This document shows positions 15,724-33,507 of a stretch of 35,002 nucleotides of DNA, in pieces. Position numbers and translations under genes: made by a program. Positions within the stretch are counted from its first letter, which is position 1. Every line of letters begins with the position of its first letter. Source of the stretch: a virus (taxonomy: Duplodnaviria > Heunggongvirae > Uroviricota > Caudoviricetes); IMG/VR virus record IMGVR_UViG_2534681936_000014, positions 1 through 35,002 of that record, one strand, 5' to 3'. Below the pieces are notes generated by a model. It made no database searches and was not told the DNA's origin. It saw only the letters and a program-made list of their open reading frames with translations.

Positions 15724-15760
15724 CGCGGGGAGGTTAACGCCTCCCTTATTCCTGTTTTAT
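15724..15760 (+). terminator. Hairpin (GGGAGG-TTAACG-CCTCCC) followed by T-rich tract; terminator or attenuator upstream of the fiber gene
   Basis: Read directly; followed by TTATTCCTGTTTT. Confidence 0.45.
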
Positions 15761-15773
15761 GTGAGGTGATTAG

Positions 15774-18700: not shown

Positions 18701-19199
18701 TAACAATTGGGGACAAGCAATTATTCGTGTTGGATCTGCGGAAAACTCACCTGATAACGGACACCCTCAAGCTGTATTTGAGTTCCATCACGATGGGTTC
18801 TTTTACACGCCGGGTAACGGTAGCTTTAACGATGTGCATATTCGATCTGATGAACGTCTTAAGATCAACAAGGAAGAATTGGAAGAAGGTGCGCTGGATA
18901 AATTAAACAGCTTAACCGTATATTCCTACGATAAAGTTAAATCACTTTCTGATGATACAGTGGTTGGACGCGAATTAGGTGTCATTGCTCAAGATGTGGA
19001 AAAAGTTATGCCGGAAGCTGTGCACGTTTGCAGCGATGGAGATACCGAAAATCCAGGAGAAATTAAAACTATTTCTGTTTCTAGTATCAATGCTCTTTTC
19101 GTGAAAGCCTTTCAGGAATTAACGACTAAGTATGATGCGATGAACGAAGAGTTGAAAGCTGTTAAAGCTGAACTTGCGGCTATTAAATCCTGTAAATGA
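15774..19199 (+). CDS. Tail fiber protein with C-terminal S74-type intramolecular chaperone (self-cleaving) domain
   Basis: 1141 aa; N-terminal shaft built from about 22-aa repeats (KVDxIKxxTDxTIAAN); C-terminal region ...SDERLKINKEELEEGALDKLNSLTVYSYDKV...GVIAQDVEKVMPEAVH... matches the signature of endosialidase / T5 L-shaped-fiber chaperone domains from memory. Confidence 0.85.
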   Translation: MQSIQFKRTNVSGKKPTPEQLQVGEVAINLKDHVIFTKDRDHEVVQISVSPETHAALESKVDANKQELDSTIAVNDRNIHAKVDEIKQTTDSTIAANHAEINNKVDVIKRETDATIEANKNKAASDLAGVKAELSDTINANKNAAAVATQELDTRINKKVDDIKSRTDATIASNHKAINDKVDLIKAETDRTIAANQAYAENQLTDTYNNLTGVIAANKQEAADSVAALTRDVEAKNTAIHSKIDNNKVYTDSELARLESRIDAADGSADGKYIKKHVNTYTDGYLLSKTANYFDDPNARNLDYFGAFRMNDLAGHIAMILHVPHPSGVNHARGFEFTYGSNPHATVRTYGYDELGNLSYSHRMYHEGDKPTPAEIGAYSKAEIDRLFQKTLNFGIEGGWFKLGSLTLPQQHGRSAKIRLVGGNGYNVGMNGQANIIELVIRCGNNSPKGVVFNAYYSIWYHEQHFCAIPTDGDNYDLYAYYGAHTGFVLAEYQVSSGGVSLNLLDTPEYLGGEKPVADEIFDALNISSFNNFSNRGTLNFAGNHQGQYDIEHMNEQQTNSKKMLRRFRSSAPATIWHESVDDQNYRLATGYDDVNQQLLLSAATGLHVKRLTLDGGVGNAGIDIRRGPNESSHFNFMDYRTGQDVRNGWFGFGDLTTKDFIWWNDNGQNSINLIEDGELHITGGKGQKIVMNSEVALSENARLAVKGGNYGLILRNDGSSFHILTTDLKDSFGNWNNRRPFSYDFADGGLYLGGTETARCLHLGIDGSTRLEDNLFFKAGSRQSMDYMELVHWGASNTGRNNVLSLRDSKGFLAEFERLWDNTTKNTFFGKMKINRGSDAIIMNAESGDSSVYLLGTCADNNNWYIGKGGGDNGLAFYSYATNAAINLTNAGDIALSPKGVEMVHVNNARLYVHGERWTASQPGDWGNQWRVEAPIFVDHGYVGQDCYYPIVKARSLITNQGYTTAVDFGMRRIPNNWGQAIIRVGSAENSPDNGHPQAVFEFHHDGFFYTPGNGSFNDVHIRSDERLKINKEELEEGALDKLNSLTVYSYDKVKSLSDDTVVGRELGVIAQDVEKVMPEAVHVCSDGDTENPGEIKTISVSSINALFVKAFQELTTKYDAMNEELKAVKAELAAIKSCK
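15952..16380 (+). repeat. Intragenic tandem repeats, about 66-bp period, encoding the fiber shaft
   Basis: Successive units starting near 15952, 16018, 16084, 16249 and 16315 all begin AAAGTxGATG...ATTAAA...ACxGA. Confidence 0.6.
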
Positions 19200-19287
19200 T
19201 ATAAATGGGGGGAACACCCCCATTTAACTAAATAAATAGAATTACGGGCATGTACCCTATTGTTTAAAAAATAGAAGGAAAAGAATA

Positions 19288-19758
19288 ATGACTACTAAAT
19301 TTGATATTTTCTCTGGTGGCCTCGTTGGTCTGTTTCTGCAAGAAGATGTAGCTAACGTTGATCTTGACGCTGAAACTTATCTGGAAATTCCAGAATGCGC
19401 AGCGTTCCCGGAAACTGGTGTAGAACGTTCTACTATCGATGTTCCTAACTTCTCTGGTGCTTATAACCGTAAGCTGGTTGGTCGTATGTCTGTACCGGAT
19501 ATCGAACTTTCGATCAACTACATGCCGGGTAACGAAGTACACGAAAAACTGATTAAAGCAACCGAAGACGGTAAGCGCGTACAGCTTAAAATTGCTTACT
19601 ACATCGATGCTACGAAAAAATCTGGTGTACATATCGCTTATAACGGCTTCCTGTCTAAAACTACCATGACTGGTGGTGAGGATGCTGTAGTAGGCCGTAC
19701 CTTCACCTTTGTAGTAGATGGTGCTCCGGTTAAACAAGCTGTTTTCCAGAAAGTCTAA
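19288..19758 (+). CDS. Major tail (tube) protein
   Basis: 156 aa; highly biased highly-expressed codon usage; immediately upstream of the chaperone pair and tape measure gene; strong terminator directly after. Confidence 0.65.
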   Translation: MTTKFDIFSGGLVGLFLQEDVANVDLDAETYLEIPECAAFPETGVERSTIDVPNFSGAYNRKLVGRMSVPDIELSINYMPGNEVHEKLIKATEDGKRVQLKIAYYIDATKKSGVHIAYNGFLSKTTMTGGEDAVVGRTFTFVVDGAPVKQAVFQKV

Positions 19759-19767
19759 TATTATCTA

Positions 19768-19795
19768 GCCATCCTTCGGGGTGGCTTTTTTGTTT
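19768..19795 (+). terminator. Rho-independent terminator (AGCCATCC-TTCG-GGGTGGCT then T7)
   Basis: Read directly after the tail tube gene. Confidence 0.75.
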
Positions 19796-19840
19796 CCAAT
19801 TCTAAATAAACATATCTAATTAACTTAAGAGGAAACAATA

Positions 19841-20149
19841 ATGAATATTAATGAAATGTTAGCCGCACTCTCTCCGAAACGCGAATCTCTGACCATCGGT
19901 GGATTTACTTTCTATGCTCGCCCTATGTCAGTAAAAGAATTTAATGAACATGTTTTCAATACCGATAAAGAAGACCGTGATGAACGTTCTATTCTTCGTT
20001 GTATTGAAGATGAAGATGGTAAGCCAGTATTTGAATCTATGGAACAAGTTAAAGCACTGTATACTAACGTCCGCAGTGAATTAATCGGTTTAGTTGCTCA
20101 AGCGTCATTGATGCAAGATCCGGCAGTAATTGAAAACGAGGTAAAGTAA
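19841..20149 (+). CDS. Tail assembly chaperone (lambda G-like)
   Basis: 102 aa; AGAGGAAA RBS; located between the tail tube and tape measure genes. Confidence 0.6.
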   Translation: MNINEMLAALSPKRESLTIGGFTFYARPMSVKEFNEHVFNTDKEDRDERSILRCIEDEDGKPVFESMEQVKALYTNVRSELIGLVAQASLMQDPAVIENEVK

Positions 20150-20178
20150 ACCCGCTTCTGAATTTCTATTTCCGGCAA

Positions 20179-20520
20179 ATGATGAGATCGGGGCTTAGTA
20201 AAGATGAAATGGATAATATGCCAATCACTCTGTTTTGGAAATTATACATTTTCGACACCTACTTAGAACCACAAAGCCCCGCGTTTCATGATATGCAGAA
20301 TGCGATGTTGCAATATTCCATGTATATGACTTCGCAAGGAATGACACGCGAAACTGCACGCAAACTCAAGCCTAGCCAATTCCAATTAATTAGAGAAGAA
20401 AAACTCTTTAAAACTAAAGAAGAACTGGAAGAAATTGCACGCAAGAAAGAAGAAGAACGTAAAGCGGCAATGCTGAACATGTTTGATCCATCTTTGCTTG
20501 AGAAACTCAGAAGCGGTTAA
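20179..20520 (+). CDS. Tail assembly chaperone extension (lambda T-like), probably made as a frameshift fusion with the upstream ORF
   Basis: 113 aa in the -1 frame relative to 19841-20149; this frame is open from 20134, overlapping the upstream stop; no RBS before ATG 20179. Confidence 0.5.
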   Translation: MMRSGLSKDEMDNMPITLFWKLYIFDTYLEPQSPAFHDMQNAMLQYSMYMTSQGMTRETARKLKPSQFQLIREEKLFKTKEELEEIARKKEEERKAAMLNMFDPSLLEKLRSG

Positions 20521-20531
20521 AGGGGTAATTT

Positions 20532-22961
20532 ATGACAAAACATATAGTAACAATAGAAGGGGATAATAAAGGTCTAAGGAGAAGTACCAATGAAGCCGCT
20601 AACCTTCTAGATAGTTTGTCTGAAAAGGCAAGTAATATTGATTTTGGCGGTGGTTTATCTGGTTTGACTGGATCTCTTCGTGGGATCGCTGGCTCTGCTG
20701 GTTTGGCTGCTGGTGGTATCGGCTTAGTTGCGACCGCAGTTTTTGCAGCCGCTAAAGCTGGCGCGGAATACGTTAAACAGTATTCAGAAGTATCTAAGGC
20801 GACCGGACTATCGATTGAATCCCTTCAAAGACTGGAAAAGGAATTTTCTGGCACTGGCTTAACAGTTGAAAAATTTGGTGATATCAACAAAGACACCTTA
20901 GACAAGATGGGTGATGCATGGGCTAACGGTGGTGGTATTGCCGATGATTTAGAATCGGTTGGCCTTAAGTTAGAAAACTATGCTCACTTCATGACCGATC
21001 CGCAAGGTGGTATGAAAGCGGCGATCCAAGTGTTCTATGACATGAAGAAAGCCGGAAAATCAATGGCTGAAATCAAGTTCATGATGGAATCTTTAGCCAG
21101 TGATTCAAGCCATATGACCAGCCAGCTTGAGAAATATAATAGTGCTCAAGAGGCGATGATCGCTATTCAGAATCAATCTGTTAACGTCACCGAAGAAAAC
21201 GCTAAAAAATATGATAAATTTTCTCAAAATATCAATAAGCTGGAAAATAACCTGAAAGGTGTCGGTATGACCATTACTGGTCCGCTGGTTGATAGTTTAA
21301 ACTGGTTATTCGAATGGTTTAATATTGATTGGGAAAAGAGTTCTCTATTCAGGGCATTAGACCGACTGAATAAAGAAGGCAAGACCGCAACTGGCGGTAT
21401 TCTTAACGCCAACCATAAAGACGCTCAAAAGATTATTGACAAGTACAATAAAGAAAAGCGTTGGAATAATCTGGCAGATTGGGAAAAGGCCGCGATCCGT
21501 GGTGCTGGTGTTGATCCTCGTACTGCTGGCTTTGATGTTGAAGGATTTAAGAAACGTTTTGGTGATTCTTATAAGAAAAATGGCTCTCTGATTGTTGTCG
21601 ATAACGGGGAACATCTAACCCGCAAGGCAGATCCTAACCGTGATTTGACTATCCCGACTACACCAACTCGACCAGCTTCATTGGGTAAGTCTGGCAACGA
21701 GAAGAAAGCCGAGGAAGAAGCCAAAAAGAAAGCGGAAGAGGCAGCTAAAAAGGCTAAGGAAGCCGCAGAAAAAGCACAGAAAGCACGCGAGGATGCAATC
21801 AAGCGACTGAATGCACTTGATGTTAAATTGCAAGGGCAAGTTGCAGCGTCTATCACTTCTCAAAATAGCCAGTTGCAAAACAGCTTAAAAGATGTGAACG
21901 ACGCGTTAGCTCTGGGCTTAATCTCTCAGGAAGACGCAGCCGCGAAACGCCAGGCGCTAATCGATCAGAATACTGAAAACGTTTATAAAATGATGTTGGG
22001 TGCTGATCCGATTGATGCTCTGAATGCTTTAACACAATTGCAACAAATCAGGGACAACGAGCTAGAAAGCCATAAACGGTTACTTGATGGTAAAGCTATC
22101 TCCTACGAAGAATATATGCGTCGTGTGAACGATACCGAGCAAAACTATTCTCAGATTGAAAATTCTTTACAGGGAATGGATGGTTATAAAACCAATCAAT
22201 TAACTAGTGGTTATGATTATCAAGACTCAAATAATCCGTTTGCTAAATTTAATGCAATCGATAAAGAGAAATCGGAAGCGGAACAAGATTATAAGACCGA
22301 TAAACTCAAGATTGATGGGATCACCGATCCGGCTAAACGGATGGTAGCATTAGAAAAACTCAATGAAAACCATCAAAAACGAATGGCTGCAATTGAGAAG
22401 AAATATGCTGATGCTCGCCAGTCAATAGCTGATGATATGTACGGCGGTTTTGCTGCTGCAATGACTCTCTTCGGGCAGGAAAACACTAAAGCAATGCAGA
22501 TGGCTTTCAATGCTCATAAAGCATTCTCCATTGGACAAGCGACGGTGAACATGTGGACGGCTGCTACCGATGCATGGAACGATCCGACCAACGTAACCAC
22601 AGGACAAAAAATCGCTGCTGCTGCATTGGCTGTTTCTCAGAACATGGGAAACATCGCAAACATCAAGTCTACTAACGTTAGCGGTATGGCTCATGATGGT
22701 ATCGATAACATCCCGCGTGAGGGTACATGGTTACTTGACAAGGGCGAGAGGGTTATAGATCAACGCACCAACGGTGATTTAAAAGATTTCCTTGCTAATA
22801 ATAAAGCAGGAAACTATAACTCTCAGCCGATTGAAGTTAATGCGCCTTTGAACATTAACGGCAACGTTAATAGCTCAGACAAGATGGTCATGGATGCTAT
22901 CAAACGTCACGCTAAGTTAGTTGCGCAGCATGTAGAAGACGTTCAGCGTCGTAAGATGTAA
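20532..22961 (+). CDS. Tail tape measure protein
   Basis: 809 aa; AAAGGGGTAA RBS; Gly/Ala-rich N-terminal hydrophobic segment; long helical, charged middle region (KKAEEEAKKKAEEAAKKAKEAAEKAQKARE); position after the G/T pair. Confidence 0.85.
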   Translation: MTKHIVTIEGDNKGLRRSTNEAANLLDSLSEKASNIDFGGGLSGLTGSLRGIAGSAGLAAGGIGLVATAVFAAAKAGAEYVKQYSEVSKATGLSIESLQRLEKEFSGTGLTVEKFGDINKDTLDKMGDAWANGGGIADDLESVGLKLENYAHFMTDPQGGMKAAIQVFYDMKKAGKSMAEIKFMMESLASDSSHMTSQLEKYNSAQEAMIAIQNQSVNVTEENAKKYDKFSQNINKLENNLKGVGMTITGPLVDSLNWLFEWFNIDWEKSSLFRALDRLNKEGKTATGGILNANHKDAQKIIDKYNKEKRWNNLADWEKAAIRGAGVDPRTAGFDVEGFKKRFGDSYKKNGSLIVVDNGEHLTRKADPNRDLTIPTTPTRPASLGKSGNEKKAEEEAKKKAEEAAKKAKEAAEKAQKAREDAIKRLNALDVKLQGQVAASITSQNSQLQNSLKDVNDALALGLISQEDAAAKRQALIDQNTENVYKMMLGADPIDALNALTQLQQIRDNELESHKRLLDGKAISYEEYMRRVNDTEQNYSQIENSLQGMDGYKTNQLTSGYDYQDSNNPFAKFNAIDKEKSEAEQDYKTDKLKIDGITDPAKRMVALEKLNENHQKRMAAIEKKYADARQSIADDMYGGFAAAMTLFGQENTKAMQMAFNAHKAFSIGQATVNMWTAATDAWNDPTNVTTGQKIAAAALAVSQNMGNIANIKSTNVSGMAHDGIDNIPREGTWLLDKGERVIDQRTNGDLKDFLANNKAGNYNSQPIEVNAPLNINGNVNSSDKMVMDAIKRHAKLVAQHVEDVQRRKM

Positions 22962-22966
22962 TTAAA

Positions 22967-23010
22967 AGCCCCCATAGTCATAAATAATCATAAAACTATG
23001 GGGGCTTTTC
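22967..23010 (+). other. Long hairpin (11-bp stem AGCCCCCATAG / CTATGGGGGCT, 18-nt loop) between tape measure and the next gene, overlapping that gene's RBS
   Basis: Read directly; followed by TTTTC and ATG at 23012. Confidence 0.6.
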
Positions 23011-23011
23011 T

Positions 23012-23572
23012 ATGTTCAAATCCAAGAATATTAAAATCACAGATTTTACTCTTAAATCAAAACAGCCTTTCTTCAAGGCGCAATCTATCTCCGGTAAGTT
23101 CCAGCGTCGCTTTACTGGCATTCATTTTTATGAAGCAGAATTTACAGCTAATTTCATGGCTCAGGATATTAACGAAGTAAAAGAATTTGTAGCACGTCAC
23201 CTTTTTGGTCGTCCTTTCAATGTGCCACTGTCTTACTTTTCAAAATATACAGGTGATGTACGCCAGATGGTTACGGCTGCTGCTGGTACTGCTCGCGGTG
23301 GGCGTAAGGTGAGAATCTCCAACTTCACCGGAACACTGAAAGCAGGAACTATCATCCAGTTTGAGAACCACAAGAAAATCTACACGATCACCGAAGACGT
23401 GAAATCAGGTGGCGAAATGAAACTCTTCCCTAACTTGCGTCAGAACGTCTTGGCGGGTGAGGTGATCAAGTATCAGAACGTAGAAGGTGAATTTGTTCTC
23501 AAAACTGAAAACATCGATTGGAAGATCGCCCAGATCGGCAAGATGAAATTTGAATTAGTGGAGAATGTATAA
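23012..23572 (+). CDS. Minor tail protein (tail-tip component, lambda M/L region equivalent)
   Basis: 186 aa, first gene after the tape measure gene; positional assignment. Confidence 0.5.
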   Translation: MFKSKNIKITDFTLKSKQPFFKAQSISGKFQRRFTGIHFYEAEFTANFMAQDINEVKEFVARHLFGRPFNVPLSYFSKYTGDVRQMVTAAAGTARGGRKVRISNFTGTLKAGTIIQFENHKKIYTITEDVKSGGEMKLFPNLRQNVLAGEVIKYQNVEGEFVLKTENIDWKIAQIGKMKFELVENV

Positions 23573-24225
23573 TGGCAACTATTCAGGAATCATTCAGCAA
23601 ACTATGCACTAATCTGGACTTCATCGAGGTATACAACGACCAGACAGGTCAGAATGTGTCTAGATTGACTCTACCGCAGCTTTTCTCCACTGGATCGATG
23701 TTTCACATTATCGAAGTAGTAACCGCGTCAGGGGACGTTCTACGGCTTACAGATGGGTACTTCGATTTGGACTATAACGGTTTTACGTATCTTGCAACGG
23801 GTGACTTTCTTCAAATCTCATCGAATACCGAAGAGAAGGAGATCAACAACAACGGGATCAACGTAACTGTTTCTAACGTCCGCGAAGAATACATTACCTT
23901 GATTCGAAACAAGCAATTCGATAAATCAGATGTGAAAATCGAGATGGTTTTCCTTAACCCTAACACGGGCAAGGTTGAAACTACTTACCCTGTTTTCCGT
24001 GGGGTAGTCGATTCCATCGGGATTAACATCGAACATGAAGATGATGAGTGTAAAAACGAATCAGAATTTCAGCTTAATAGTATCTGGGAAGTTCTAGATA
24101 AAAACGCTCGTAGTCATGCCTCTGATGGTATCCACCGATCATATGCTGGAAACGAGAACGATCTATTCTTCTCAAGGGCGGGTCGCTGGTTATCGGAAAG
24201 CAAGTGGCATTCGTCTAAAAAATAA
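23572..24225 (+). CDS. Minor tail protein (tail-tip component)
   Basis: 217 aa; start overlaps the upstream stop (TAATG); positional assignment. Confidence 0.5.
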   Translation: MATIQESFSKLCTNLDFIEVYNDQTGQNVSRLTLPQLFSTGSMFHIIEVVTASGDVLRLTDGYFDLDYNGFTYLATGDFLQISSNTEEKEINNNGINVTVSNVREEYITLIRNKQFDKSDVKIEMVFLNPNTGKVETTYPVFRGVVDSIGINIEHEDDECKNESEFQLNSIWEVLDKNARSHASDGIHRSYAGNENDLFFSRAGRWLSESKWHSSKK

Positions 24226-24299
24226 TACTGAAACTAAATGGCACACCAAAGCCCTCAATAAATATAGGAGAGATTCTTTATTTTTGAGGGCTTTCCTAT

Positions 24300-25073
24300 A
24301 TGCGAAAATTCCATTACGTTTATCACACCACTATTAAATCTAATCGCTCTGGTAAAATCTATCATTACGTCGGAAAAAGAACAACTACAAATCTAGACGA
24401 TGGATATGTGGGGTCGGGTAAAGTTATTAAAATGATGAAGCGTAAAAATAAAGAATCAGAAACCCCGATATATGAATTTGAAGTTGTTCGCTCAAAATTG
24501 TTTGATACTGCCGAGGAAGCGTTTGAATGTGAAATTCTGTTAGTGGAGGCAGCACGCGAAAAATGGGGGCGTGGTGTATGTCTTAATATTGCTCCTGGTG
24601 GTGTCGGTGGTTTTGATGGTGGTGAACATCACCCACTGTACGGAAAGAAACATAAGCCAGAAACAATCGAGAAATTTAGAAAGAACAACGCAGGTGAAGG
24701 AAACCCGATGTTTGGACGGGTAAGCCCAAAACGAGGAAGGAAGATAACTAATCCAGAAACGTTAGCTAAAATGTCCGCTGCAATGAAAGGCGCTAATAAT
24801 CCTCGATACGGCGCAATAGTCACCGAAGAAACACGCGCAAGAATTAGTAAGGCTTTATCTGGTCGAAAGATTACCGATCCTGTAGAAAAGGCTAACAGAA
24901 CTAAAGCAATTAGGGAATCGAAAGGTCAAGCATGTTGGCAACATTACGATGAAATTCGTCGTGTGTGGATCGAAAACGGTAAGCCCGGCGCGGCAAGATT
25001 ACGAACAATCATGATTGGCTTAGGCCATCCAAAATATGATCTTCGTAGAATGTGCGAAGACTTCAAGAAATAA
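24300..25073 (+). CDS. GIY-YIG homing endonuclease with NUMOD3-like repeats
   Basis: 257 aa; N-terminal HYVYHT...GKIYHYVGKRTT...GYVGSGK and FECEIL align with the I-TevI catalytic-domain pattern (GIYQIKN...VYVGSA...FECSIL) from memory; three G-x-x-H/NP-x-[YF]G-x-x-x-x-x-E-T-x-x-K-[IM]S repeats (HPLYGKKHKPETIEKF, NPMFGRVSPKRG...PETLAKMSAAM, NPRYGAIVTEETRARISKAL). Confidence 0.8.
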   Translation: MRKFHYVYHTTIKSNRSGKIYHYVGKRTTTNLDDGYVGSGKVIKMMKRKNKESETPIYEFEVVRSKLFDTAEEAFECEILLVEAAREKWGRGVCLNIAPGGVGGFDGGEHHPLYGKKHKPETIEKFRKNNAGEGNPMFGRVSPKRGRKITNPETLAKMSAAMKGANNPRYGAIVTEETRARISKALSGRKITDPVEKANRTKAIRESKGQACWQHYDEIRRVWIENGKPGAARLRTIMIGLGHPKYDLRRMCEDFKK

Positions 25074-25119
25074 TCCCTTCTCCCTAAGCCTAGTAAATAA
25101 CAGCATGGAGGTATTCAAC

Positions 25120-25539
25120 ATGCTAAAAACTAGGCTTATCACCGATTACATCAATTCTTTAATAGGTCAGGAGTTCGTTCAAGGCGAGAATGATTGCAAT
25201 ATAATTGCATGTAAGATAATCGATATTCTCGCTGGTACTGACCTATATAATTCTCTTTATAAAAAATATTCAACTAAAGAAGAAGGCTTGAAAATCTGCA
25301 AAGAATTAAGCGGATACACAAATATCCTTCAACCAATTAAGAAACATTTCAAATTAGTCACTGATGATTTACAGGACGGCGACTTACTGGTCACAGCCCA
25401 CAAATTAGGAAACCGCAAATATTATTCCGTAGTTCCTCATTATTCCGGTTATGGCCTCGTTGAAGAAGATGGTATCTGGATGACCATTCCTGTTTCAGAC
25501 ATTGACTATGAACAAGTTTATAGATTCGGGGGTGAATAA
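25120..25539 (+). CDS. Minor tail protein, possibly lambda K-like (Cys/His peptidase-like)
   Basis: 139 aa from ATG 25120 with GGAGG RBS; candidate catalytic Cys (ENDCNIIACK) and His residues (HYSGYG); weak. Confidence 0.4.
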   Translation: MLKTRLITDYINSLIGQEFVQGENDCNIIACKIIDILAGTDLYNSLYKKYSTKEEGLKICKELSGYTNILQPIKKHFKLVTDDLQDGDLLVTAHKLGNRKYYSVVPHYSGYGLVEEDGIWMTIPVSDIDYEQVYRFGGE

Positions 25540-28500
25540 TGGGATTTGAAATATTGGTAGGCGCGGTGATCGCTGGTGCTTCGGCGGGGATGGCGGCAGC
25601 CGCAACATTTTCTGTTATGACCGCAGTCGCTATCGGTATGGCTGCTGGTGCAATGACCTTGATCGCTTCCACTGTAGGCGCACCAAAAACACCGAAAGTA
25701 CAAAGCCCAGATAATGCGGTGACACTAGGAACATCAAACGATCCTAAGACAGTATTACCCGTTCTTTTCGGTACTACCCGCACGGGTGCAATCTGCGTTT
25801 ACAAAGCAATTTCACAGCGTGAAAACAACAAACTGGTACAAATTTTTGCTATTGCCGAAGGTGAGATCGATCACTTTAAAGCACTGCACATCGATAATAA
25901 AAACGTTCTCATTAGCCAGAATATGACAATTCGTGATGGCATTCTCGATAAAGGAAACATTAAAGACGAGTATCGCAAAGTTTTAGAAGTCGAGTTTCGC
26001 ACTGGTAAAAATCCTAACACTGCATTAGATCTGGCTAAACATCATTTGGGCGCAGATTGGGATGATCGGTATCAGGGTAACGGCATTGCGACCATGTGTA
26101 TTGTTTTACGTCGTGATGACAAATCTTTGGCTGCTGGTGTTGATATCCTTCAACCAAATAGCCAGGTAGCGGTCGATGTTATGGGCTTAAAGATTCGTAA
26201 CCTTGAAACTAATGCTATTGAGGCTAGCACTAACGGCGTGGACCAGATTTTCCACTACCTAACAAATGAAAAATATGGCTTATCCGTACCAATTGAAAAC
26301 ATCAACGTTGATTCATTCCTGAAAGTACGTAAACAAGTACGCCAGATGGATTTGCATTCAAACGGTGCATGTGATCCGAACGCCAGCTTTAAAGAGAACT
26401 TAACTAATCTCATGCAGACTTTCGGCGGGGTGATGTTCGAATCCTTCGGAAGAATTACCCTGAAACTGGATGCTCCTGATATTGTTAAGCATACCTTCAA
26501 TGAAGACAATATCATGATGGGTAAGGTATCACTGAAAACAGGTGGCACTAACGGTTATTTCAATACCATTAACGCGATGTATCAAGAACCATCAATCGAC
26601 TATTCCGAGCAAATGCTACGTTATCCGGCTGATGCTGAAAACGATGCTACTATTCGTCAAGATGGTCGAATTATCGCTAAAGATATTGAATATCGTTTTG
26701 TTAAGTCTAAAGCCCAGATTGATAAACTCGCGAGTGTAGAACGAAATAAATCTCGTATCACTCAGGTTATCAGCTTTATGACTACTGACGCATTCACTGC
26801 CGAAGTTTGGGATGTTATTAGCGTAACCTATGATGAATTAAAACTGAATAATTCACTTTGGCGTATTACTGCAATTGATCGCTCTATTGATTCTGGTATT
26901 GCTGGGATGATGACTATCACCGCCACAGAATATAATTCTCAGGTTTATACTGACCTGAACTATGCGGCGAATCCAGACAATAGACCTACTGGTTTACCGG
27001 ATTCAATGACAGTACAGAAACCGACTAATTTCAGAATTAAGGCAACTGGTGAGACAATCCACGGTAAAAACGTAACTTTGACATGGGATGCACCGGAAGA
27101 TTTCAACCGCTACGGTTTCCAGATTGATTACAAAGTGAGTGGATCACCTAACTGGATTAAGCTGGGACAGACTTCACAGCAAATTTTCAATATCAATGCA
27201 CTGGCTAAAGATCGTTCCTACGATTACCGCGTTTGTGCTTTCGGTATTATTGCTCGTTCCGAATGGGTGGAATTGGTTAACCAGAATCCAGAAGTTACCT
27301 ATGAACTGCCTACGCCAGCGATCCGCATCAAAAATCAGGGTAGTTCACCTGGTACTTTCGAAGGCAACGATCTGATTATTGAATGGGACAATCAGCAAGC
27401 CTTAGATGTGGTTATCAACGGTGAAACTAACAAGTTTAGTGACCTGTTTGAAGCCTACATTATCAAGGTAACTAACAAGGCTGGTAAGTCTATTCAGTAC
27501 CGTACCCGCGATCCTGAATCATGGACCTATACGCTCGATATGAACCAGTTTAACGGCCTTTCCCGTGAATTGACGGTAGAAGTATCCGCTAAGGGTTATA
27601 ACAACTCTGTAAGCGCCCCAGCGCGTTTAGTGGCTATTAACCCACAGCATAAGCCAATGAAAGGTTTTAGTGCGCGTGGTGGCTTTAATACTGCGTTTGT
27701 TAGCTGGGCGGATGACGTAGAACATGACTATGCAGGGTCAATCATCCAGTATGCAACCGATAACACTTTCTCAGATGCAAGGGCAGTAAGCACGAATAGT
27801 GTTAGCCATACTTCCTTTGATATTGCTGACGGTGATTATTATATCCGTGGTGCTCACTACGATATTTTCGGTATGGATGATGCTGTTTGGTCCGAACCGT
27901 ATTTCATGCAAATGAAATCTACCATTAGTTGGGACGATCAGGACAAAGAAGCACTGGAAGACCTGATCGGTTTACAAGATCGCTTAGATGAAACCATCGC
28001 GGATGCTATTGCTCAAGCTGGCGCTAATGCCGATGCTAAGATTGATGCAATGCATAAACAGATTACTACCGAGACAGGGCAGACGGTCCAAGCCTCAGCC
28101 GATACTCTCAAGAGTCTGATTGCTACCAGTGAGCAAGCCAGCGCAACTAAGATTGATCAGGTTAAAGCTGAACTGAAAGGCGATATCACCAAAGAAGTTA
28201 GCGCATCCGCTACTACCCTGAAACAAGCAATTGCTACCAGTGAGGCAGCAAGCGCAAGCAAGATTGATCAAGTTCGGGTAGAAATGGATGGTAAGATTGC
28301 TGGTGTGAATCAGGAAGCAGATGTAAAAATCGATGCTTTGAAGGGAACCATTAACAGCAAATATAATCTGGCAGTTAATGCAGATGGTCGCGTGGCTGGT
28401 ATTCATATGAGCGCAACCAACGATCCAGCACAACCGACGAGAATCATCTTTACGGCTGATAAAATCGCGGTAGCTCCACAAGACGGATCAGAAGTTTGTC

Positions 28501-29285
28501 CGTTTGGTATCGAAGATAACAAGGTTTATCTCGATAATGCAATGATTCGTAATGCAGCGATCGGAACCGCCCAGATTAGTGATGCTAGTATCACTACGGC
28601 TAAGATCGGCACAGCCCAGATTAACGGTGCTCACATCCAGCACGCACAGATCGGAACAGGTCATATTATTGATGGCTCTATCGATAATGCTAAAATTGGT
28701 AACTATATCCAGTCTTATAACTGGAATGGTAACGATGGATGGTATATTGGCAAAGATGGCACTTGCCATTTTAGACACGCTAATATTCGTGGTCATTTGG
28801 TGGCTGATTCCGGCGAAATGAACAACGTAACGATTAATTCAAGTTGCCGCATTTTGGGTATGCTTGATGCTAATCAGGTGCGTGGTGACTTCGTGAAAGT
28901 GGTTGGTAGGAGTTTCCCGCATCGCCAACCAAACTGGCCTGATGGTGCAATCACTGTAAGGGTCGAAGATGATCATCCATTCGATCGCCAAATAGTGATT
29001 CCAGCGATTCATCATAACGGGTCTGTTCGTCGTGGCGAAAGTAGCGATCATTGGGATACTTGCCGACTAATCGTTAAGAAAAATGGTGGTGTTCTATATG
29101 ATCGCACTGCAACTTCTGGCTGTATGTACAGTGGAGTTATTGACATGCCAGCCGGACACGGGGCAGTAACAATGACTTTTGAAGTTTACTGTAAGGGCGT
29201 TAACAACTATACCCCAAGTGCATATATCAGCGATCTAACGGTAATGGTAACTAAGAAAGCCGCTACTGGTATTTCTGTTTCTTAA
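25539..29285 (+). CDS. Central tail fiber / tip attachment protein (lambda J-like) with gpI-like hydrophobic N-terminal extension
   Basis: 1248 aa; N-terminal Ala/Gly-rich hydrophobic segment; a central region with fibronectin-type-III-like beta-strand character (by eye); C-terminal region with tandem repeats (TLKxxIATSExASAxKIDQV x2) and AxIGTAQIxxAxI repeats reminiscent of lambda J. Confidence 0.8.
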   Translation: MGFEILVGAVIAGASAGMAAAATFSVMTAVAIGMAAGAMTLIASTVGAPKTPKVQSPDNAVTLGTSNDPKTVLPVLFGTTRTGAICVYKAISQRENNKLVQIFAIAEGEIDHFKALHIDNKNVLISQNMTIRDGILDKGNIKDEYRKVLEVEFRTGKNPNTALDLAKHHLGADWDDRYQGNGIATMCIVLRRDDKSLAAGVDILQPNSQVAVDVMGLKIRNLETNAIEASTNGVDQIFHYLTNEKYGLSVPIENINVDSFLKVRKQVRQMDLHSNGACDPNASFKENLTNLMQTFGGVMFESFGRITLKLDAPDIVKHTFNEDNIMMGKVSLKTGGTNGYFNTINAMYQEPSIDYSEQMLRYPADAENDATIRQDGRIIAKDIEYRFVKSKAQIDKLASVERNKSRITQVISFMTTDAFTAEVWDVISVTYDELKLNNSLWRITAIDRSIDSGIAGMMTITATEYNSQVYTDLNYAANPDNRPTGLPDSMTVQKPTNFRIKATGETIHGKNVTLTWDAPEDFNRYGFQIDYKVSGSPNWIKLGQTSQQIFNINALAKDRSYDYRVCAFGIIARSEWVELVNQNPEVTYELPTPAIRIKNQGSSPGTFEGNDLIIEWDNQQALDVVINGETNKFSDLFEAYIIKVTNKAGKSIQYRTRDPESWTYTLDMNQFNGLSRELTVEVSAKGYNNSVSAPARLVAINPQHKPMKGFSARGGFNTAFVSWADDVEHDYAGSIIQYATDNTFSDARAVSTNSVSHTSFDIADGDYYIRGAHYDIFGMDDAVWSEPYFMQMKSTISWDDQDKEALEDLIGLQDRLDETIADAIAQAGANADAKIDAMHKQITTETGQTVQASADTLKSLIATSEQASATKIDQVKAELKGDITKEVSASATTLKQAIATSEAASASKIDQVRVEMDGKIAGVNQEADVKIDALKGTINSKYNLAVNADGRVAGIHMSATNDPAQPTRIIFTADKIAVAPQDGSEVCPFGIEDNKVYLDNAMIRNAAIGTAQISDASITTAKIGTAQINGAHIQHAQIGTGHIIDGSIDNAKIGNYIQSYNWNGNDGWYIGKDGTCHFRHANIRGHLVADSGEMNNVTINSSCRILGMLDANQVRGDFVKVVGRSFPHRQPNWPDGAITVRVEDDHPFDRQIVIPAIHHNGSVRRGESSDHWDTCRLIVKKNGGVLYDRTATSGCMYSGVIDMPAGHGAVTMTFEVYCKGVNNYTPSAYISDLTVMVTKKAATGISVS

Positions 29286-29303
29286 AATTTAATTCTAATA
29301 ATT

Positions 29304-29346
29304 AATCCCGCTTAATTCTTTTGAGTTAGGCGGGATTATTTTTATC
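29304..29346 (+). terminator. Hairpin (AATCCCGC...GCGGGATT, long loop) followed by ATTTTTATC
   Basis: Read directly after the J-like gene. Confidence 0.5.
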
Positions 29347-29390
29347 TAAATAATTTTGCCATTAAACTATATAAAAATATCGGGGGCGTA

Positions 29391-29669
29391 ATGACTGAAA
29401 TTATATATGGCGGTATCGGTGTTATCGCCTTAATTTGCGGTGGGCTTTGGAGACTCCACCGAAATCAATTAGCAACAGAAAATAGGTTATCTAAATTGGA
29501 ATCCAGCGACGCATTGTTAAACCAGAAGTTTGAGACGATGCAGAATAACCATACTCAGATTGCTGAACGTGTTTACCAAATGGAACAAACACTACACGGT
29601 ATAGAGAAGAAAGTGGTTGCGATGGACGCTAAATTTGACCAAGTTATCGATTTACTCAGACAAAAATAA
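29391..29669 (+). CDS. Membrane protein with N-terminal TM helix and C-terminal coiled coil (holin or spanin-like candidate)
   Basis: 92 aa; TM segment IIYGGIGVIALICGGLW; remainder predicted helical. Confidence 0.45.
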   Translation: MTEIIYGGIGVIALICGGLWRLHRNQLATENRLSKLESSDALLNQKFETMQNNHTQIAERVYQMEQTLHGIEKKVVAMDAKFDQVIDLLRQK

Positions 29670-29688
29670 TAATAAAAGGGGTGAATAT

Positions 29689-29859
29689 ATGAAGAATAAA
29701 CTTAAGAAATATTTTGGTTATCTCTTGATTGTCGCCCTCACTTATAACGTAGCTATTAGACCTCTGCTAACGTCCTTTGGGCTTGAACTCCCGGCTATGA
29801 CCGTGGATGAACAATTGCTAAGGACACTGGCGGGGGTCTTTTCGTTATTAGGGGGCTAA
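29689..29859 (+). CDS. Small membrane protein (56 aa), holin-like candidate
   Basis: ATG at 29689 with AAAAGGGGTGA RBS; hydrophobic segments FGYLLIVALTYNVAI and LAGVFSLLGG. Confidence 0.4.
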   Translation: MKNKLKKYFGYLLIVALTYNVAIRPLLTSFGLELPAMTVDEQLLRTLAGVFSLLGG

Positions 29860-29860
29860 C

Positions 29861-30544
29861 ATGGCAATCAGTACCAATAAACGAAACGCTCTAAGGACTA
29901 AGAAAGCGTTGCGGCAATGGTCTGAAAAGGCAACTGATACATTCGAAAGGGCGATAGGGGAAGGGGCGATCTTTGCTTCCAGAGCACTCCAGAAGAAGAT
30001 TAACAAGAATGTTGATAGACCTACTCGCTGGACTCAGCAAGCTGTAGGTAATACCAACTACAAGAACCGATCAGGGACGAGACACCAAATCTTCATTAAG
30101 GGCGCAAGGGATAAGGACAAGAAGATCGGCAGTCAGGACGACTATCTGAAACACTATTTCGATGGTGGCAAAATCAATAAGCTAGTGCCAATTGCCAACG
30201 GTAAGGTCTTAGACGCCCACGGGAACATTAAGGCCATCAAAGGCGGGAGGATGATGCGTAACCTCGAAAACGGCAACTTCATCAAGGTAGAGAACAAGGA
30301 AGGGACTTTTATCATGAAGAAGTACAAGCCTAAGAAATCCCGAACCAAACGCGCTAGGAATGGATCGGCGGTGGCAAAACGTCGCTTAGAGAAACGCATC
30401 CAGAAACAGAGTAAGCGAATTGTTGCCGTTAAGTCGGATAAAATTTCTACTCGTTATTCGACGCTAGGATCGTGGGAAAGCAACGAGGAAATGATGCTTA
30501 AGAACATTAATAAGCACATTAAATCGCGCATGAGATATGTTTAA
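29861..30544 (+). CDS. Highly basic protein (227 aa), unknown function; atypical codon usage
   Basis: Lys/Arg-rich throughout; uses AGG/AGA/GGG/AAG codons far more than the structural genes. Confidence 0.5.
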   Translation: MAISTNKRNALRTKKALRQWSEKATDTFERAIGEGAIFASRALQKKINKNVDRPTRWTQQAVGNTNYKNRSGTRHQIFIKGARDKDKKIGSQDDYLKHYFDGGKINKLVPIANGKVLDAHGNIKAIKGGRMMRNLENGNFIKVENKEGTFIMKKYKPKKSRTKRARNGSAVAKRRLEKRIQKQSKRIVAVKSDKISTRYSTLGSWESNEEMMLKNINKHIKSRMRYV

Positions 30545-30582
30545 TCCATAAATACCCTCATAGAATCTTATGGGGGTATAAC

Positions 30583-30930
30583 ATGGCTAAAAATATTTTC
30601 ACTGAATTTCCTACTTATCCGGTCGATCAGCTTTCCGGTATTTTTATTAATGGCATTAGCCCAGAATCAATGACCTATGATTTTGAGGCGAAGAGAGTTA
30701 AACATAAACAATATAAAGAATGTATCCGCGATCATGAAAAAGGGACCGTGTTTTGTGTCGCTACATTGGCTAAACGTCCTAAGTATCGTTTTCGTGTCGG
30801 GCAAGAAGTCGATGTAGTTAATCCTTATAGCTTTAATTGTCTGGGCGATGCACGCGCGGTGTGTGTAGGCACTGCTCCTTATTATATCAAGGGTATGCGC
30901 TTTATTGGTTATATCTTCGAAATGATCTAA
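30583..30930 (+). CDS. Hypothetical protein (115 aa)
   Basis: GGGGGTATAA RBS; no motif recognised. Confidence 0.45.
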   Translation: MAKNIFTEFPTYPVDQLSGIFINGISPESMTYDFEAKRVKHKQYKECIRDHEKGTVFCVATLAKRPKYRFRVGQEVDVVNPYSFNCLGDARAVCVGTAPYYIKGMRFIGYIFEMI

Positions 30931-30939
30931 GGGGGTAAT

Positions 30940-31293
30940 ATGTTAAGCAAACATTTTTCTCGCAAGGAATTTAAATGTAAATGCGGAAAATGTGATTATG
31001 ATACAATCGACGCTGAATTACTGGTAATTCTTGAGGATGTACGAGAGCACTTCGGTAAACCAGTGATTATTAACAGTGGCAACCGTTGCCCGACTCATAA
31101 CAAGAATGTAGGCGGGGCAGCCAATAGCTATCACGTTCGAGGCCGCGCGGCTGACATTGTTATCAAGGGTGTCTCACCTGATATTGTTCATGCTTATCTT
31201 GATGGGAAATATCCTACTCAATACGGCTTAGGAAAATATAAAACATTTACGCATATCGATTCCAGATCAAAAAAATCACGGTGGAATGGATAA
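30940..31293 (+). CDS. Endolysin, zinc metallopeptidase of the M15 family (L-alanyl-D-glutamate peptidase type)
   Basis: 117 aa; AAGGGGGTAA RBS; motif SGNRCPTHN...SYHVRGRAADI...H.D matches the His/Asp zinc-binding pattern of M15 peptidases such as the T5 endolysin, from memory. Confidence 0.7.
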   Translation: MLSKHFSRKEFKCKCGKCDYDTIDAELLVILEDVREHFGKPVIINSGNRCPTHNKNVGGAANSYHVRGRAADIVIKGVSPDIVHAYLDGKYPTQYGLGKYKTFTHIDSRSKKSRWNG

Positions 31294-31295
31294 AA

Positions 31296-31326
31296 CAAAA
31301 GCGCCTCTGGTGGGCGCTTTTTTGTT
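31296..31326 (+). terminator. Rho-independent terminator at the end of the plus-strand late operon
   Basis: AGCGCC-TCTGGTG-GGCGCT followed by TTTTTGTT. Confidence 0.75.
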
Positions 31327-31502
31327 AGAATATGCTGGCGACGTTAGCTATATTTCTGACCATTTTTTCATTATAGACAAATATACCGCAGACGATAAAG
31401 TCGTTTTTGACGAAGTAGATCCGTCTCTGGTTGAAGTAATGAAAGAACCGGAAGACCTAGAGCTTGATTTAAGCCAATTATAGACTCTCTAACGCAATTA
31501 AA

Positions 31503-31528
31503 TTAAAAAGGGGTACAAATGTACCCCT
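31503..31528 (-). terminator. Rho-independent terminator for the minus-strand cassette (convergent with the plus-strand terminator)
   Basis: GGGGTAC-AAAT-GTACCCC preceded on the plus strand by A5, which is a T5 run after the stem on the minus strand. Confidence 0.65.
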
Positions 31529-31565
31529 TAAAGCGTTTGGTTCGTTATACGGCGATTTAGGCCGC

Positions 31566-31823
31566 CTATGATTTATTTTCTTGTTCTATGAAAATCTTTC
31601 TCACCTCATCAGAATAAATGTCTAGTGATTCCTCATAACATTTTCTGTATTCATCGTAATTACTGGTGGTCTTTTGACATAGCAATTTCAATGTCTTATG
31701 TGCTCCATCAATGAAAGCATCTTCTCTATAGGTTAGCGGTCTACGCATTTCTTGGTCTACGGTTGCCAATGCCAGGCAAGAATTCATAGATAAAATCAAA
31801 CCTAAAATCTTAATCATCTTCAT
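31566..31823 (-). CDS. Small secreted (possibly lipo-) protein, translationally coupled to the serine recombinase
   Basis: ATG at 31823 lies 4 nt after the recombinase TAA stop (ORF-track start 31838 is a TTG); signal peptide MKMIKILGLILSMNSCLALA; about 85 aa. Confidence 0.5.
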   Translation of the reverse strand: MKMIKILGLILSMNSCLALATVDQEMRRPLTYREDAFIDGAHKTLKLLCQKTTSNYDEYRKCYEESLDIYSDEVRKIFIEQENKS

Positions 31824-31827
31824 TAGC

Positions 31828-33507
31828 TTAAATTCCAAATTCCTGTAATGGACCTGGTATTTCTTCTTCTGGTTTCCAGTTCTTATCTGTCAGCATGTCT
31901 AAACATGGATGCAGAACAAGCCCGTTACTCTCCAGAATCTGCCTATCATTGATAGTCTTCAAATCAACGAAGATCCGGCCTTTCCTCGGTCCTCTTGAAT
32001 TTTCTATTACAACTCTCTGGGTCTTGCCATCGATGTATTCCAGTACAAACAAGTTTTTGTACTTGTCAATCCTGCTACACCCGATCCGTTTTAGAGCTTG
32101 CTTAATCTTAAACCGGACCTTAATGCGATCCTCGTTGTAAACATCTTCTAAATCAAATTCTGCGAGCTTCTCCCAGCCTTGAGAGTCAACAGAATACATT
32201 TCCTCTTCTGCCATCTTAATTTGATTGTAGAGTGTTTCACGCTCGCTATTGAGGGTAGTAATCTGATCGGCTAGCTCCTTCGTTGCTCCTGTCATAGCAG
32301 AAAGGGTAATCAGGTTATCAATCTTGCGTGATATTTCATCAATCTGTACTTTCAAAGCCGGAACCGGATTAGCCTTATCTTCAGCAATCCAGATTTTATC
32401 AGCCAGCAATTGCAATACAGCTTTCTCTAATTGGTCGCCGCGAAAACTCCAGTTTGTATGCACACATTCAATACGACTAGAGCGCATTGCATCGCATGAA
32501 TAACGATATTGGTTAGGCCGTCTGTTTGTTCCTTTCACCTTAACCATAGCGGAACCGCAATGTTCACATTTCAATAGACCAACACCACTAAGCAAGGGAA
32601 TAGGTTTAACTTCTTCTTTGTCTCCAAAGTTACATGCTCTAACACCAATGCTTTTCTTAAGGTGATAAAACTCAGCGTCATCTAGCACACGAGGATAATA
32701 ATCCTTTAACTCATACTTAACGCCATCTACAGAGATTTCCTTGATACCAATCAAAGCGCGGGTATGGAACAACCTTTCAATCATTGCCCGTGACCAGTTT
32801 GAATGCCTCTTGTGACTTGCGGCTGGTGGTGGTGTGTATGTCGCGTTAAGGTGATCCAGTATCTCGGCGGTTGACCGTCCATTCCTGCGTAATTCCACAA
32901 CTTCCTGAACAATAGGGAAGAAGACCGGATGAGGAAGCACATAACCAGATGTGGTATCAGTCCACCACATATTCTTTCCAATTTCCTCGATTGCAACAGC
33001 CGGATTTTGTGGATTTTCTTGATGAGCTTTAATCTTAATCAGTGCGCTTGAGTTAGTACGATTGCGCTTAGTCTGGCTTTCCTCATTACCACGGATGAAT
33101 AAAAGGATGGAGAACATCAGGTCCATCGGGTTAGCGGTAACAGTATCCAGCGAGTAGATCTTGTTATCCATGCCAGTAACAATGGTTATCCCCCTACGGA
33201 TGATTGAAAGGAATAACTCCTGCGCACTGACAATATCGGCACGGGATAAACGGTCCAAGTTTTCGATGAATAGCCAGCTACCAACAGGAACGGATCTACC
33301 TATTGCATCAAGGAAACGAGATAGCGCCCCTGTTTTGGAGTTAGCACCCTTAAACGCAGATACACCCAGATCCTGATAATCATTTACCAGTTCAAGGTCA
33401 TACTTTACCGCAATCTCTCTAGCCATCCTGATTTGTCGTTCATAACTCGAACCATCATTCTGACGCATAGACGAGAAACGAATATACGAATACAGTTTAG
33501 TTTTCAT
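31828..33507 (-). CDS. Large serine recombinase (resolvase-type catalytic domain, recombinase domain, zinc ribbon and coiled-coil C-terminal region)
   Basis: About 559 aa from ATG 33507; N-terminal YSYIRFSSMRQNDGSSYERQ with the catalytic Ser in the position typical of serine recombinases; Cys pairs (CEHCGS...CDAMRSSRIEC) and coiled-coil region downstream. Confidence 0.85.
   Translation of the reverse strand: MKTKLYSYIRFSSMRQNDGSSYERQIRMAREIAVKYDLELVNDYQDLGVSAFKGANSKTGALSRFLDAIGRSVPVGSWLFIENLDRLSRADIVSAQELFLSIIRRGITIVTGMDNKIYSLDTVTANPMDLMFSILLFIRGNEESQTKRNRTNSSALIKIKAHQENPQNPAVAIEEIGKNMWWTDTTSGYVLPHPVFFPIVQEVVELRRNGRSTAEILDHLNATYTPPPAASHKRHSNWSRAMIERLFHTRALIGIKEISVDGVKYELKDYYPRVLDDAEFYHLKKSIGVRACNFGDKEEVKPIPLLSGVGLLKCEHCGSAMVKVKGTNRRPNQYRYSCDAMRSSRIECVHTNWSFRGDQLEKAVLQLLADKIWIAEDKANPVPALKVQIDEISRKIDNLITLSAMTGATKELADQITTLNSERETLYNQIKMAEEEMYSVDSQGWEKLAEFDLEDVYNEDRIKVRFKIKQALKRIGCSRIDKYKNLFVLEYIDGKTQRVVIENSRGPRKGRIFVDLKTINDRQILESNGLVLHPCLDMLTDKNWKPEEEIPGPLQEFGI

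Follow-up and report, generated by a model that had tools for sequence, protein, structure and literature searches.

A codon-usage outlier in the lysis cassette of an Escherichia coli prophage: a candidate displaced tail completion protein of the PHROG 1924 branch

What is a strongly basic protein doing between the tail-tip gene and the endolysin gene of a siphovirus prophage, and why is its gene written in codons that the neighboring genes largely avoid? The question is raised by a stretch of DNA of 35,002 nucleotides, analyzed here in full and referred to as the window, which is 100% identical to a prophage of ~35 kb in the E. coli O55:H7 strain DEC5A. A sequence-only reading of the window had described two adjacent genes, one for a 56-aa small membrane protein (29689–29859) and one for a 227-aa, Lys/Arg-rich protein (29861–30544), as a codon-usage island. 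It had taken the island for a horizontally acquired moron, whose basic product might bind nucleic acid or serve in anti-defense or exclusion. The coordinates and open reading frames are as described there, and the larger product is indeed highly basic, with Lys and Arg making up 25% of its residues and a pI of 10.8. The explanation offered for the island fares less well, as the evidence from relatives of the prophage makes clear.

Of 5426 complete E. coli genomes, 60 carry prophages related to the one in the window, and FDAARGOS_946 is, besides DEC5A, a further strain with the prophage. The element itself is a siphovirus of ~41% GC whose insertion has split hicB, with both prophage ends lying within that gene. 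Its head module is of the lambda type and comprises a gpA-type large terminase, a lambda-family portal, a protease-capsid fusion, and a lambda FII-like head-closure protein of 96 aa (14161–14451; plus strand, as are terS, the 140-aa gene, and the features in and around the cassette described below, unless stated otherwise), the last recognized by Pfam as Phage_attach (2.4e-5) and by phrog_161 (Hc1). The small terminase subunit gene, terS, is located at 1139–1693 (phrog_57, 1.2e-11). Other genes encode a tail fiber, tube, chaperones, tape measure (20532–22961), and large serine recombinase, while the tail tip resembles those of phiJL001 and the GTAs in possessing DTP, DUF2163, and DUF6950 proteins and a J-like protein of 1248 aa. 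The FII-like gene marks the canonical neck module, in which it would ordinarily be followed by a gpZ-like gene. The slot after FII holds a gene for a 140-aa protein (14435–14857), a candidate tail terminator with a weak likeness to lambda gpU (E = 0.028 over 75 columns in hhalign). No Pfam or PHROG match was found for this 140-aa protein, and it showed no similarity to the alignment of the basic-protein family.

The basic gene is part of a cassette of six genes downstream of J, with hairpins on both sides. Directly 3′ of the J gene is a terminator-like hairpin (29303–29338) with a 16-bp stem followed by a T-run, and none was detected at the equivalent place in L001, a related prophage locus of Salmonella enterica. 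The first gene of the cassette (29391–29669) encodes a 92-aa membrane protein that combines a transmembrane helix at the N-terminus with a coiled coil. It is followed by the gene for the 56-aa protein, which has a basic N-terminus and a hydrophobic segment and, from its sequence, is possibly a holin-like lysis protein. The 56-aa protein is 77–96% conserved among relatives and weakly matches phrog_2024, a family of unknown function. Next comes the 227-aa basic gene, and then a gene for a conserved 115-aa protein (30583–30930), which always follows the basic gene and has normal codon usage. The cassette continues with a Peptidase_M15_3 endolysin of 117 aa (30940–31293; Pfam, 8.8e-28; phrog_894, 1.7e-45) and ends with a 65-aa acidic protein (31286–31483). 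Beyond it, a palindromic, terminator-like hairpin on the minus strand (31508–31529) lies between the cassette and a convergent recombinase operon. Vibrio phage D478 was considered as a relative of the prophage and set aside, as it is an unrelated podovirus with similarity in the endolysin alone.

Within the cassette, the stop codon of the 56-aa gene and the start codon of the 227-aa gene are only 1 nt apart (AGGGGGcTAAcATG). An AGGGGG ribosome-binding site lies inside the 3′ end of the 56-aa gene, ahead of the TAA-c-ATG junction (29850–29863). The 1-nt spacing suggests that the two genes are translationally coupled. No promoter-like or terminator-like site was found at the borders of the 227-aa gene. 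Both coding sequences are present in RefSeq, where they are labelled hypothetical proteins, the 227-aa product under the accession WP_001018459.

How unusual is the coding style of this gene? With synonymous codons resampled from the remaining genes of the window, the 227-aa gene proved to be the strongest synonymous-codon outlier of 32 genes (log-likelihood z = −6.55), and restricting the comparison to the non-structural genes left it an outlier (z = −6.2). Its GC3 of 0.555 compares with 0.24–0.48 in every other gene of the window, and synonymous resampling gives 0.55 versus an expected 0.39 (z = +5.38). The contrast is equally apparent in sliding windows of 40 codons, where GC3 climbs to 0.75 in the middle of the 227-aa gene and has a maximum of 0.55 in the J gene. 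Most of the codon preferences first noticed in the sequence are confirmed by these counts: AAG encodes 23 of the 35 Lys residues (versus 29% AAG in the structural genes), AGA or AGG encodes 9 of the 22 Arg residues (versus 12%), and GGG encodes 6 of the 16 Gly residues (versus 10%). The supposed preference for CTC, by contrast, amounts to 2 of 10 Leu codons versus 8% in the structural genes and is not significant.

The notion of an island spanning both genes holds well for the 227-aa gene and weakly for its upstream neighbor, the 56-aa gene deviating only modestly (z = −3.6 over its 55 codons; GC3 z = +1.2). Moreover, the two genes do not form one unit, and a recombination boundary in relatives falls between them. 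Genes elsewhere in the window, for example the recombinase gene and those at 7275–7877 and 23572–24225, also deviate at z = −3 to −5, and therefore the resampling null understates the normal variation between genes.

A moron would be expected to be missing from some relatives of its carrier, and the conservation of the locus bears directly on this point. Homologs of the basic protein are rare, with six 90% clusters among 5.8 billion proteins and, for the enterobacterial subfamily, 12 cluster representatives at E ≤ 0.001 among 1.84 billion. The close homologs all belong to prophages of E. coli or Salmonella with a GC content of ~41%, and a search for loci with the narrow alignment recovered only near-identical prophages. 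Among 5426 complete E. coli genomes, 55 (~1%) carry the gene, 53 of them as the allele of the window and two as an allele of 199 aa; an allele of 239 aa occurs as well. The basic gene was never absent among the relatives found, which comprise these 55 genomes and further loci, including L001, which adjoins csg genes in S. enterica, L014, which adjoins the same csg-region genes, and L002/L003 of E. coli. In all recovered loci the gene order is J, 92 aa, 56/57 aa, basic gene, 115–117 aa, and M15 endolysin, and the 1-nt TAAcATG spacing of stop and start codons is also found in L001, L002, L014, and L048. At a dN/dS of 0.05–0.07, the basic gene is under strong purifying selection. The constant slot, the 1-nt junction, the low dN/dS, and the lack of a promoter or terminator of its own together are what one sees in a core gene and not in cargo.

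Horizontal exchange at the slot is nonetheless real, although it takes a form other than the one first proposed. Between the window and L002, the tail genes and those through the 56-aa gene differ at a dS of 0.4–0.9, while the basic gene is saturated at synonymous sites and its product is 57–60% identical. In two complete genomes, the match to the query ends at nucleotide ~181, which is the gene boundary. One of the two, STEC1575, carries the 199-aa allele, whose product is 31% identical to the window protein, between flanks that are 78–96% identical. Across prophages, alleles at the slot are 31–57% identical while the flanking genes are 77–96% identical, and because such divergent alleles sit between highly similar flanks, the slot is a hot spot at which one divergent member of the family replaces another. 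What is exchanged horizontally is therefore an orthologous allele, and no new gene has been inserted.

Where, then, does the codon bias come from? A recent import is hard to square with the L014 allele, which stands at a dS of ~2 from the window allele and yet has a GC3 of 0.558 that is likewise confined to the basic gene, the flanks in the window and in L014 having values of 0.36–0.48. Because the high GC3 has been kept in both alleles at this distance and is limited to the gene, it argues for a maintained property rather than an unameliorated import. It is a property of the window/L014 allele clade only, with GC3 values of 0.45 in L001, 0.41 in L002, and 0.44 in STEC1575, and the excess is spread over many amino acids and not Lys alone. 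Raised use of AGR, AAG, and GGG, on the other hand, is common to all alleles, and homologs of the basic gene deviate from the tail genes in every lineage tested (z = −4.3, −5.1, and −5.9). The non-structural genes of these prophages share the AGR/AAG/GGG usage. The same lean toward AGR or AAG is seen in lambda Z, LESphi3 gp35, phiNP_029, and P0014 (p = 0.02–0.08 each, uncorrected).

Another aspect of the coding style is the scarcity of A-runs. Runs of at least five A number 0 in the basic gene of the window versus 7.4 expected and 2 in that of L014 versus 6.5 expected, and the longest A-run in any allele is at most 6, where 7–9 would be expected. Poly-A runs are known slippage sites, and their avoidance here fits selection against slippage in a message rich in Lys and Asn codons. 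An overlapping or antisense gene was rejected as the source of the third-position bias, since antisense open reading frames (e.g., 30154–30399) did not exceed in length the synonymous-shuffle expectation in any of four lineages. No RNA element belonging to an Rfam family was found in the basic gene at threshold. Overall, the codon bias looks intrinsic to the basic gene. The style could be understood as use of purine-rich Lys, Arg, and Gly codons (AAG, AGR, and GGG) of the kind seen in low-expression genes of this phage, combined with avoidance of A-runs and, in one clade of alleles, raised GC3. It is conceivable that a low need for the product, at one to few copies per particle, tolerates or even favors rare codons.

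The identity of the product can be approached through sequence profiles. The sequence-only reading had seen no recognizable motif in the basic protein, and this holds for Pfam and NCBIfam, where no match was found, including to Minor_tail_Z and HK97-gp10. It does not hold for PHROGs, where the window protein matches phrog_1924, "minor tail protein", at E = 3.6e-4, with residues 30–199 aligned to positions 31–207 of the 237 in the profile. The same profile is matched by 9 of 15 members of the wider family, the best at 2.4e-33, and an alignment of 21 family sequences compared in hhalign with LESphi3 gp35, phiNP_029, and RcCronus gp44 gave 99.6% and E = 8.3e-25 over 177 columns. Such profile matches place the 227-aa protein in the PHROG 1924 branch. 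The PHROG label "minor tail protein" is itself inferred. The phage homologs were reached only through distant members of the family, and a direct tblastn search of 50,697 phage records with the window protein gave no match. A profile search against PDB sequences returned chance matches only, and no helix-turn-helix or other DNA-binding domain was detected in the basic protein. Members of PHROG 1924, including LESphi3 gp35, phiNP_029, RcCronus gp44, and R4C gp049, resemble the window protein in having a length of 180–250 aa and a pI of ~11 (10.7–11.4 among the members). They also have the motifs DRPTxFT, YL..GG, P, and GNI in common with it, although overall identity is only 15–30%.

Genomic position provides a further likeness. 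PHROG 1924 genes, like the gene in the window, are found beside lysis genes or terminase and outside the neck module. For example, the gene of LESphi3 lies between Rz and terS, whereas in phiNP the lysis genes and two more genes come before it and terS follows directly. In the metagenomic contig L039, it is preceded by a divergent lysozyme gene and followed by a gpA-type terminase, and in RcCronus, R4C, S-CBS3, and BZS1 it is the last gene before the cos end (for the cos ends used in this placement, see PMC8601537). The window gene differs from these in lying inside the lysis cassette, after the small membrane-protein gene, and in having an integration module ahead of terS. Once the prophage is excised and circularized, nothing but the integration module intervenes between the cassette and terS, and the usual order of lysis genes, PHROG 1924 gene, and terS is thereby restored. 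That the gene is seen between J and the endolysin in the linear prophage is a result of the placing of the integration module between the cassette and terS. The small terminase was itself considered as an identity for the basic protein and rejected, as the window has a separate terS at 1139–1693 and terS genes also adjoin members of the family.

Relative to the neck genes, the basic gene lies ~15 kb downstream of the FII-like gene and after the tail-tip gene J, away from the interval that separates head-closure and tail-terminator genes. The neck modules of LESphi3 and phiNP yielded no phrog_27 match, and that of the window no other recognizable tail completion protein.

The phrog_27 family, "tail completion or Neck1", is the point at which PHROG 1924 connects with well-known virion proteins. 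It is matched by LESphi3 gp35 (4.2e-8) and by phiNP_029 (0.003), the latter aligned over residues 2–147, while lambda gpZ matches phrog_27 at 3.2e-69 and, reciprocally, phrog_1924 at 1.9e-4. The cross-matches between PHROG 1924 and PHROG 27 involve mainly the N-terminal ~80 residues. Within the basic-protein family, a single member matches phrog_27 directly (0.0055). The match of LESphi3 gp35 to Pfam Minor_tail_Z is weak (0.075), and hhalign comparisons of the family with lambda gpZ, as a single sequence or an alignment of seven, were not significant (for the alignment, E = 0.05–0.1, in short fragments).

Structure prediction adds to this picture. With the deeper alignment, an AF2 model of the 227-aa protein reached a pLDDT of 77 and a pTM of 0.64; with only seven close homologs, the pLDDT was 43 and the model unusable. 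The best, if tentative, structural match of the model is a tail completion protein, with 92 of its 109 residues covered, and the weak matches in BFVD include several "HK97-gp10 putative tail-component" proteins. Foldseek against the PDB, on the other hand, found nothing, and the match to 80alpha gp51 was not recovered. Lambda gpZ is, like the window protein, very basic (pI 12.0 versus 10.8) and has an internal Lys/Arg-rich loop; both may be composed of N-terminal helices, a small β-domain, and a C-terminal helix. Lambda also shares with the window phage a gpA terminase, a lambda-family portal, and an FII-like protein, and lambda Z, like the window gene, makes raised use of AGA/AGG relative to its neighbors. 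The two proteins nevertheless have no significant direct sequence or profile match, and lambda Z sits between FII and U, whereas the window gene does not. As for 80alpha gp51, a member of the HK97 gp10 family (PDB 9mu2, chain P), its identity to the window protein is 12%, and the window protein is twice its size, with an inserted β-domain and a basic loop. Membership of the basic protein in the tail-completion superfamily, being transitive through PHROG 1924 without a direct profile match, is probable but not proven, because the gpZ profile comparison is non-significant, the Foldseek search is empty, and the cross-matches are N-terminal.

The tail completion protein of 80alpha is a monomer located inside the tail at the neck, where it forms a β-sheet with the tape measure protein and touches the end of the DNA (PMC11661146). 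Loss of gp16.1 from SPP1 or of gpZ from lambda lowers infectivity 100- to 500-fold (PMC11661146; background in PMC11784142). We consider it the most probable reading, with the balance tilting modestly in its favor, that the 227-aa protein is a displaced and divergent tail completion protein, distantly related to lambda gpZ, HK97 gp10, SPP1 gp16.1, and 80alpha gp51. If 80alpha gp51 is a guide, each virion would contain one or a few copies, lodged in the tail lumen at its upper end, where the protein could contact both the DNA and the tape measure. Nucleic-acid binding, one of the activities first imagined for the basic protein, is plausible as one element of such a virion role, given this contact of the 80alpha protein with the end of the DNA (PMC11661146). 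The position of the gene outside the neck module speaks against a tail completion role, which might instead fall to the 140-aa protein encoded in the canonical slot. In addition, the 12 structural proteins listed in a cryo-EM study of the roseophage R4C do not include the product of vBDshSR4C_049, its PHROG 1924 gene (PMC10276861). The omission counts only weakly against the assignment, since other symmetric reconstructions have missed tail completion proteins as well (PMC11661146).

The most serious alternative, though an unlikely one, is that the protein is a basic, DNA-binding accessory of packaging or of the lysis/late program and not a component of the virion neck. It might, for example, bind cos or the DNA end or assist the terminase, and have only an N-terminal helical module in common with gpZ-type proteins. 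A pI of 10.8 would suit such a factor, as would the association of the family with lysis genes and with terS/terL or the cos end rather than with neck genes, the mostly N-terminal similarity to phrog_27 coupled with a non-significant gpZ profile comparison, and the missing R4C homolog. The structural model nonetheless finds its best match in a tail completion protein (92 of that protein's 109 residues), the alignment of phiNP_029 to phrog_27 spans residues 2–147, and a separate terS is present both beside family members and in the window. Moreover, the basic protein has no detected DNA-binding domain, and symmetric reconstructions routinely fail to show tail completion proteins (PMC11661146), which blunts the argument from R4C. 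As to the coding style, it is conceivable, but improbable, that the window/L014 allele clade was recombined in as a gene-sized tract from a phage of a higher-GC host and has not yet ameliorated. The slot is, after all, a hot spot for allelic replacement with breakpoints at the gene start, high GC3 is found only in the window (0.555) and L014 (0.558) alleles, and the excess extends across many amino acids rather than Lys only. Such an import would nevertheless need a pair of tracts whose ends coincide exactly with the borders of the gene, and a dS of ~2 between the alleles would have allowed time enough for amelioration, yet the same GC3 is kept. No high-GC donor was found, the close homologs come from prophages of ~41% GC, and raised AGR, GGG, and AAG are features of all the alleles.

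The moron interpretation, by which the gene would be horizontally acquired cargo with an anti-defense, superinfection-exclusion, or other host-directed function, is now very improbable. Its appeal lies in the atypical codon usage, the lack of Pfam or NCBIfam annotation, and the high variability of alleles between related prophages, as is often seen in arms-race genes. The gene is never absent from the relatives found, though, lacks a promoter or terminator of its own, and is joined to the upstream gene by the TAAcATG junction. A dN/dS of 0.05–0.07 and the presence of the homologous family in many lytic and temperate phages, at a fixed position in the late operon, are equally out of keeping with cargo, and the modeled fold appears closest to that of a virion protein. 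A further possibility, less likely than the import yet not as remote as the moron, is that PHROG 1924-type proteins, those of the enterobacterial subfamily among them, are not ordinary tail completion proteins of the neck lumen but distinct basic factors associated with the DNA end or cos, traveling with the lysis/terminase junction of lambda-like late operons. Were this so, the coding style (rare AGR and GGG codons, AAG instead of AAA, and a lack of A-runs) would be a selected translational throttle or anti-slippage device that fixes the stoichiometry at one per particle. The frequent swaps of highly divergent alleles between nearly identical prophages would then mean that the protein adapts jointly with the tape measure or DNA end, or that it evades a host defense by which it is sensed.

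Returning to the favored reading of a displaced tail completion protein, the analysis offers a probable function for a protein that is annotated only as hypothetical in E. coli and Salmonella prophages. Tail completion proteins are among the least understood components of the virion, and the first in-place structure dates from 2024–2025. Moreover, the gene in the window may exemplify a broader pattern, in which a whole gpZ-like branch would be encoded away from the neck genes and beside the lysis genes and terminase. Finally, the locus carries a caution for the scanning of genomes, as a codon anomaly limited to one gene can be intrinsic to a low-copy, Lys/Arg-rich core gene and need not be the mark of foreign cargo.

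The gene encoding the 227-aa basic protein (29861-30544), a candidate tail completion protein, occupies a slot that is an allelic-replacement hot spot. In E. coli STEC1575 (locus L048), the slot is filled by a 199-aa allele (3673-4272) with 31% identity to the window protein, and the genes flanking it are 78-96% identical between the two loci. A further allele, of 239 aa and 57% identical to the window protein, occupies the slot in two other E. coli relatives (L002 and L003). The breakpoint is the TAAcATG junction, at which the stop codon of the upstream 56-aa gene meets the start of the basic gene. From sequence comparison with L002 and the Salmonella enterica relative L001, the tape measure protein (20532-22961) is a further mosaic segment; identity between the window and L002 is only 47%, and the adjoining distal tail protein is 94% identical between the same two loci. 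Possibly, the tape measure co-varies with the tail-completion-like gene.

A homolog of the basic protein also occurs in Escherichia phage DCP80 (PQ671644, locus L006 at 15617-32129), whose 141-kb record is assigned to the T4-like Gaprivervirus group. There, a siphovirus-type block encodes a 1252-aa protein, an endonuclease VII, the basic-protein homolog, and an endolysin; either a chimera created in assembly or a genome of unusual mosaicism may account for this record. The window itself shares unexpected DNA, as a temperate siphovirus, with lytic myoviruses. Within a 65-aa ORF (31286-31483), a 70-nt stretch (31383-31453) is ~90% identical to part of the prohead protease inhibitor gene, inh, of RB49-like Krischvirus T4-type phages.

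Immediately 3′ of J lies a terminator-like hairpin with a 16-bp stem and a T-run (29303-29338). Its position directly before the lysis/basic-gene cassette suggests that the cassette would be transcribed by read-through past this structure. No terminator-like hairpin was detected at the equivalent site of the Salmonella relative L001.

The genuine mobile insertion of the tail module is a NUMOD3 homing-endonuclease gene (24300-25073), which separates the DUF2163 hub gene from the DUF6950 gene and is missing at the corresponding site in L001, L002, and L014, another csg-region relative. Elsewhere in the tail genes, a 1141-aa tail-fibre gene (15774-19199), whose product combines a C-terminal S74 chaperone with trimerisation domains resembling those of T4 gp34/gp37, has the tail tube gene on one side and a tube-like gene of 277 aa on the other, an unusual location for a fibre gene. 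The terminase genes are also separated, with the small-subunit gene (1139-1693) ~6 kb away from the large (7888-9870); the interval holds a gene for an Ant-like regulator as well as two genes on the opposite strand.

At the prophage ends (L008 2655-2774 and 38066-38374), the hicB antitoxin gene is split, and the adjoining hicA is intact. One end carries a minus-strand LprI-family lysozyme-inhibitor gene (1-780), a better candidate for a moron than the basic gene, to which the sequence-only reading had applied that label on the basis of codon usage. AGA/AGG and/or AAG codons are likewise commoner than in neighboring genes in the tail-completion-type genes of four unrelated phages, namely lambda Z (L007), LESphi3 gp35 (L010), phiNP_029 (L011), and P0014 of a metagenomic contig (L039), with odds ratios of 3-9 and p = 0.02-0.08 each. 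This recurrence hints that the coding peculiarity is family-wide among tail-completion-type genes.
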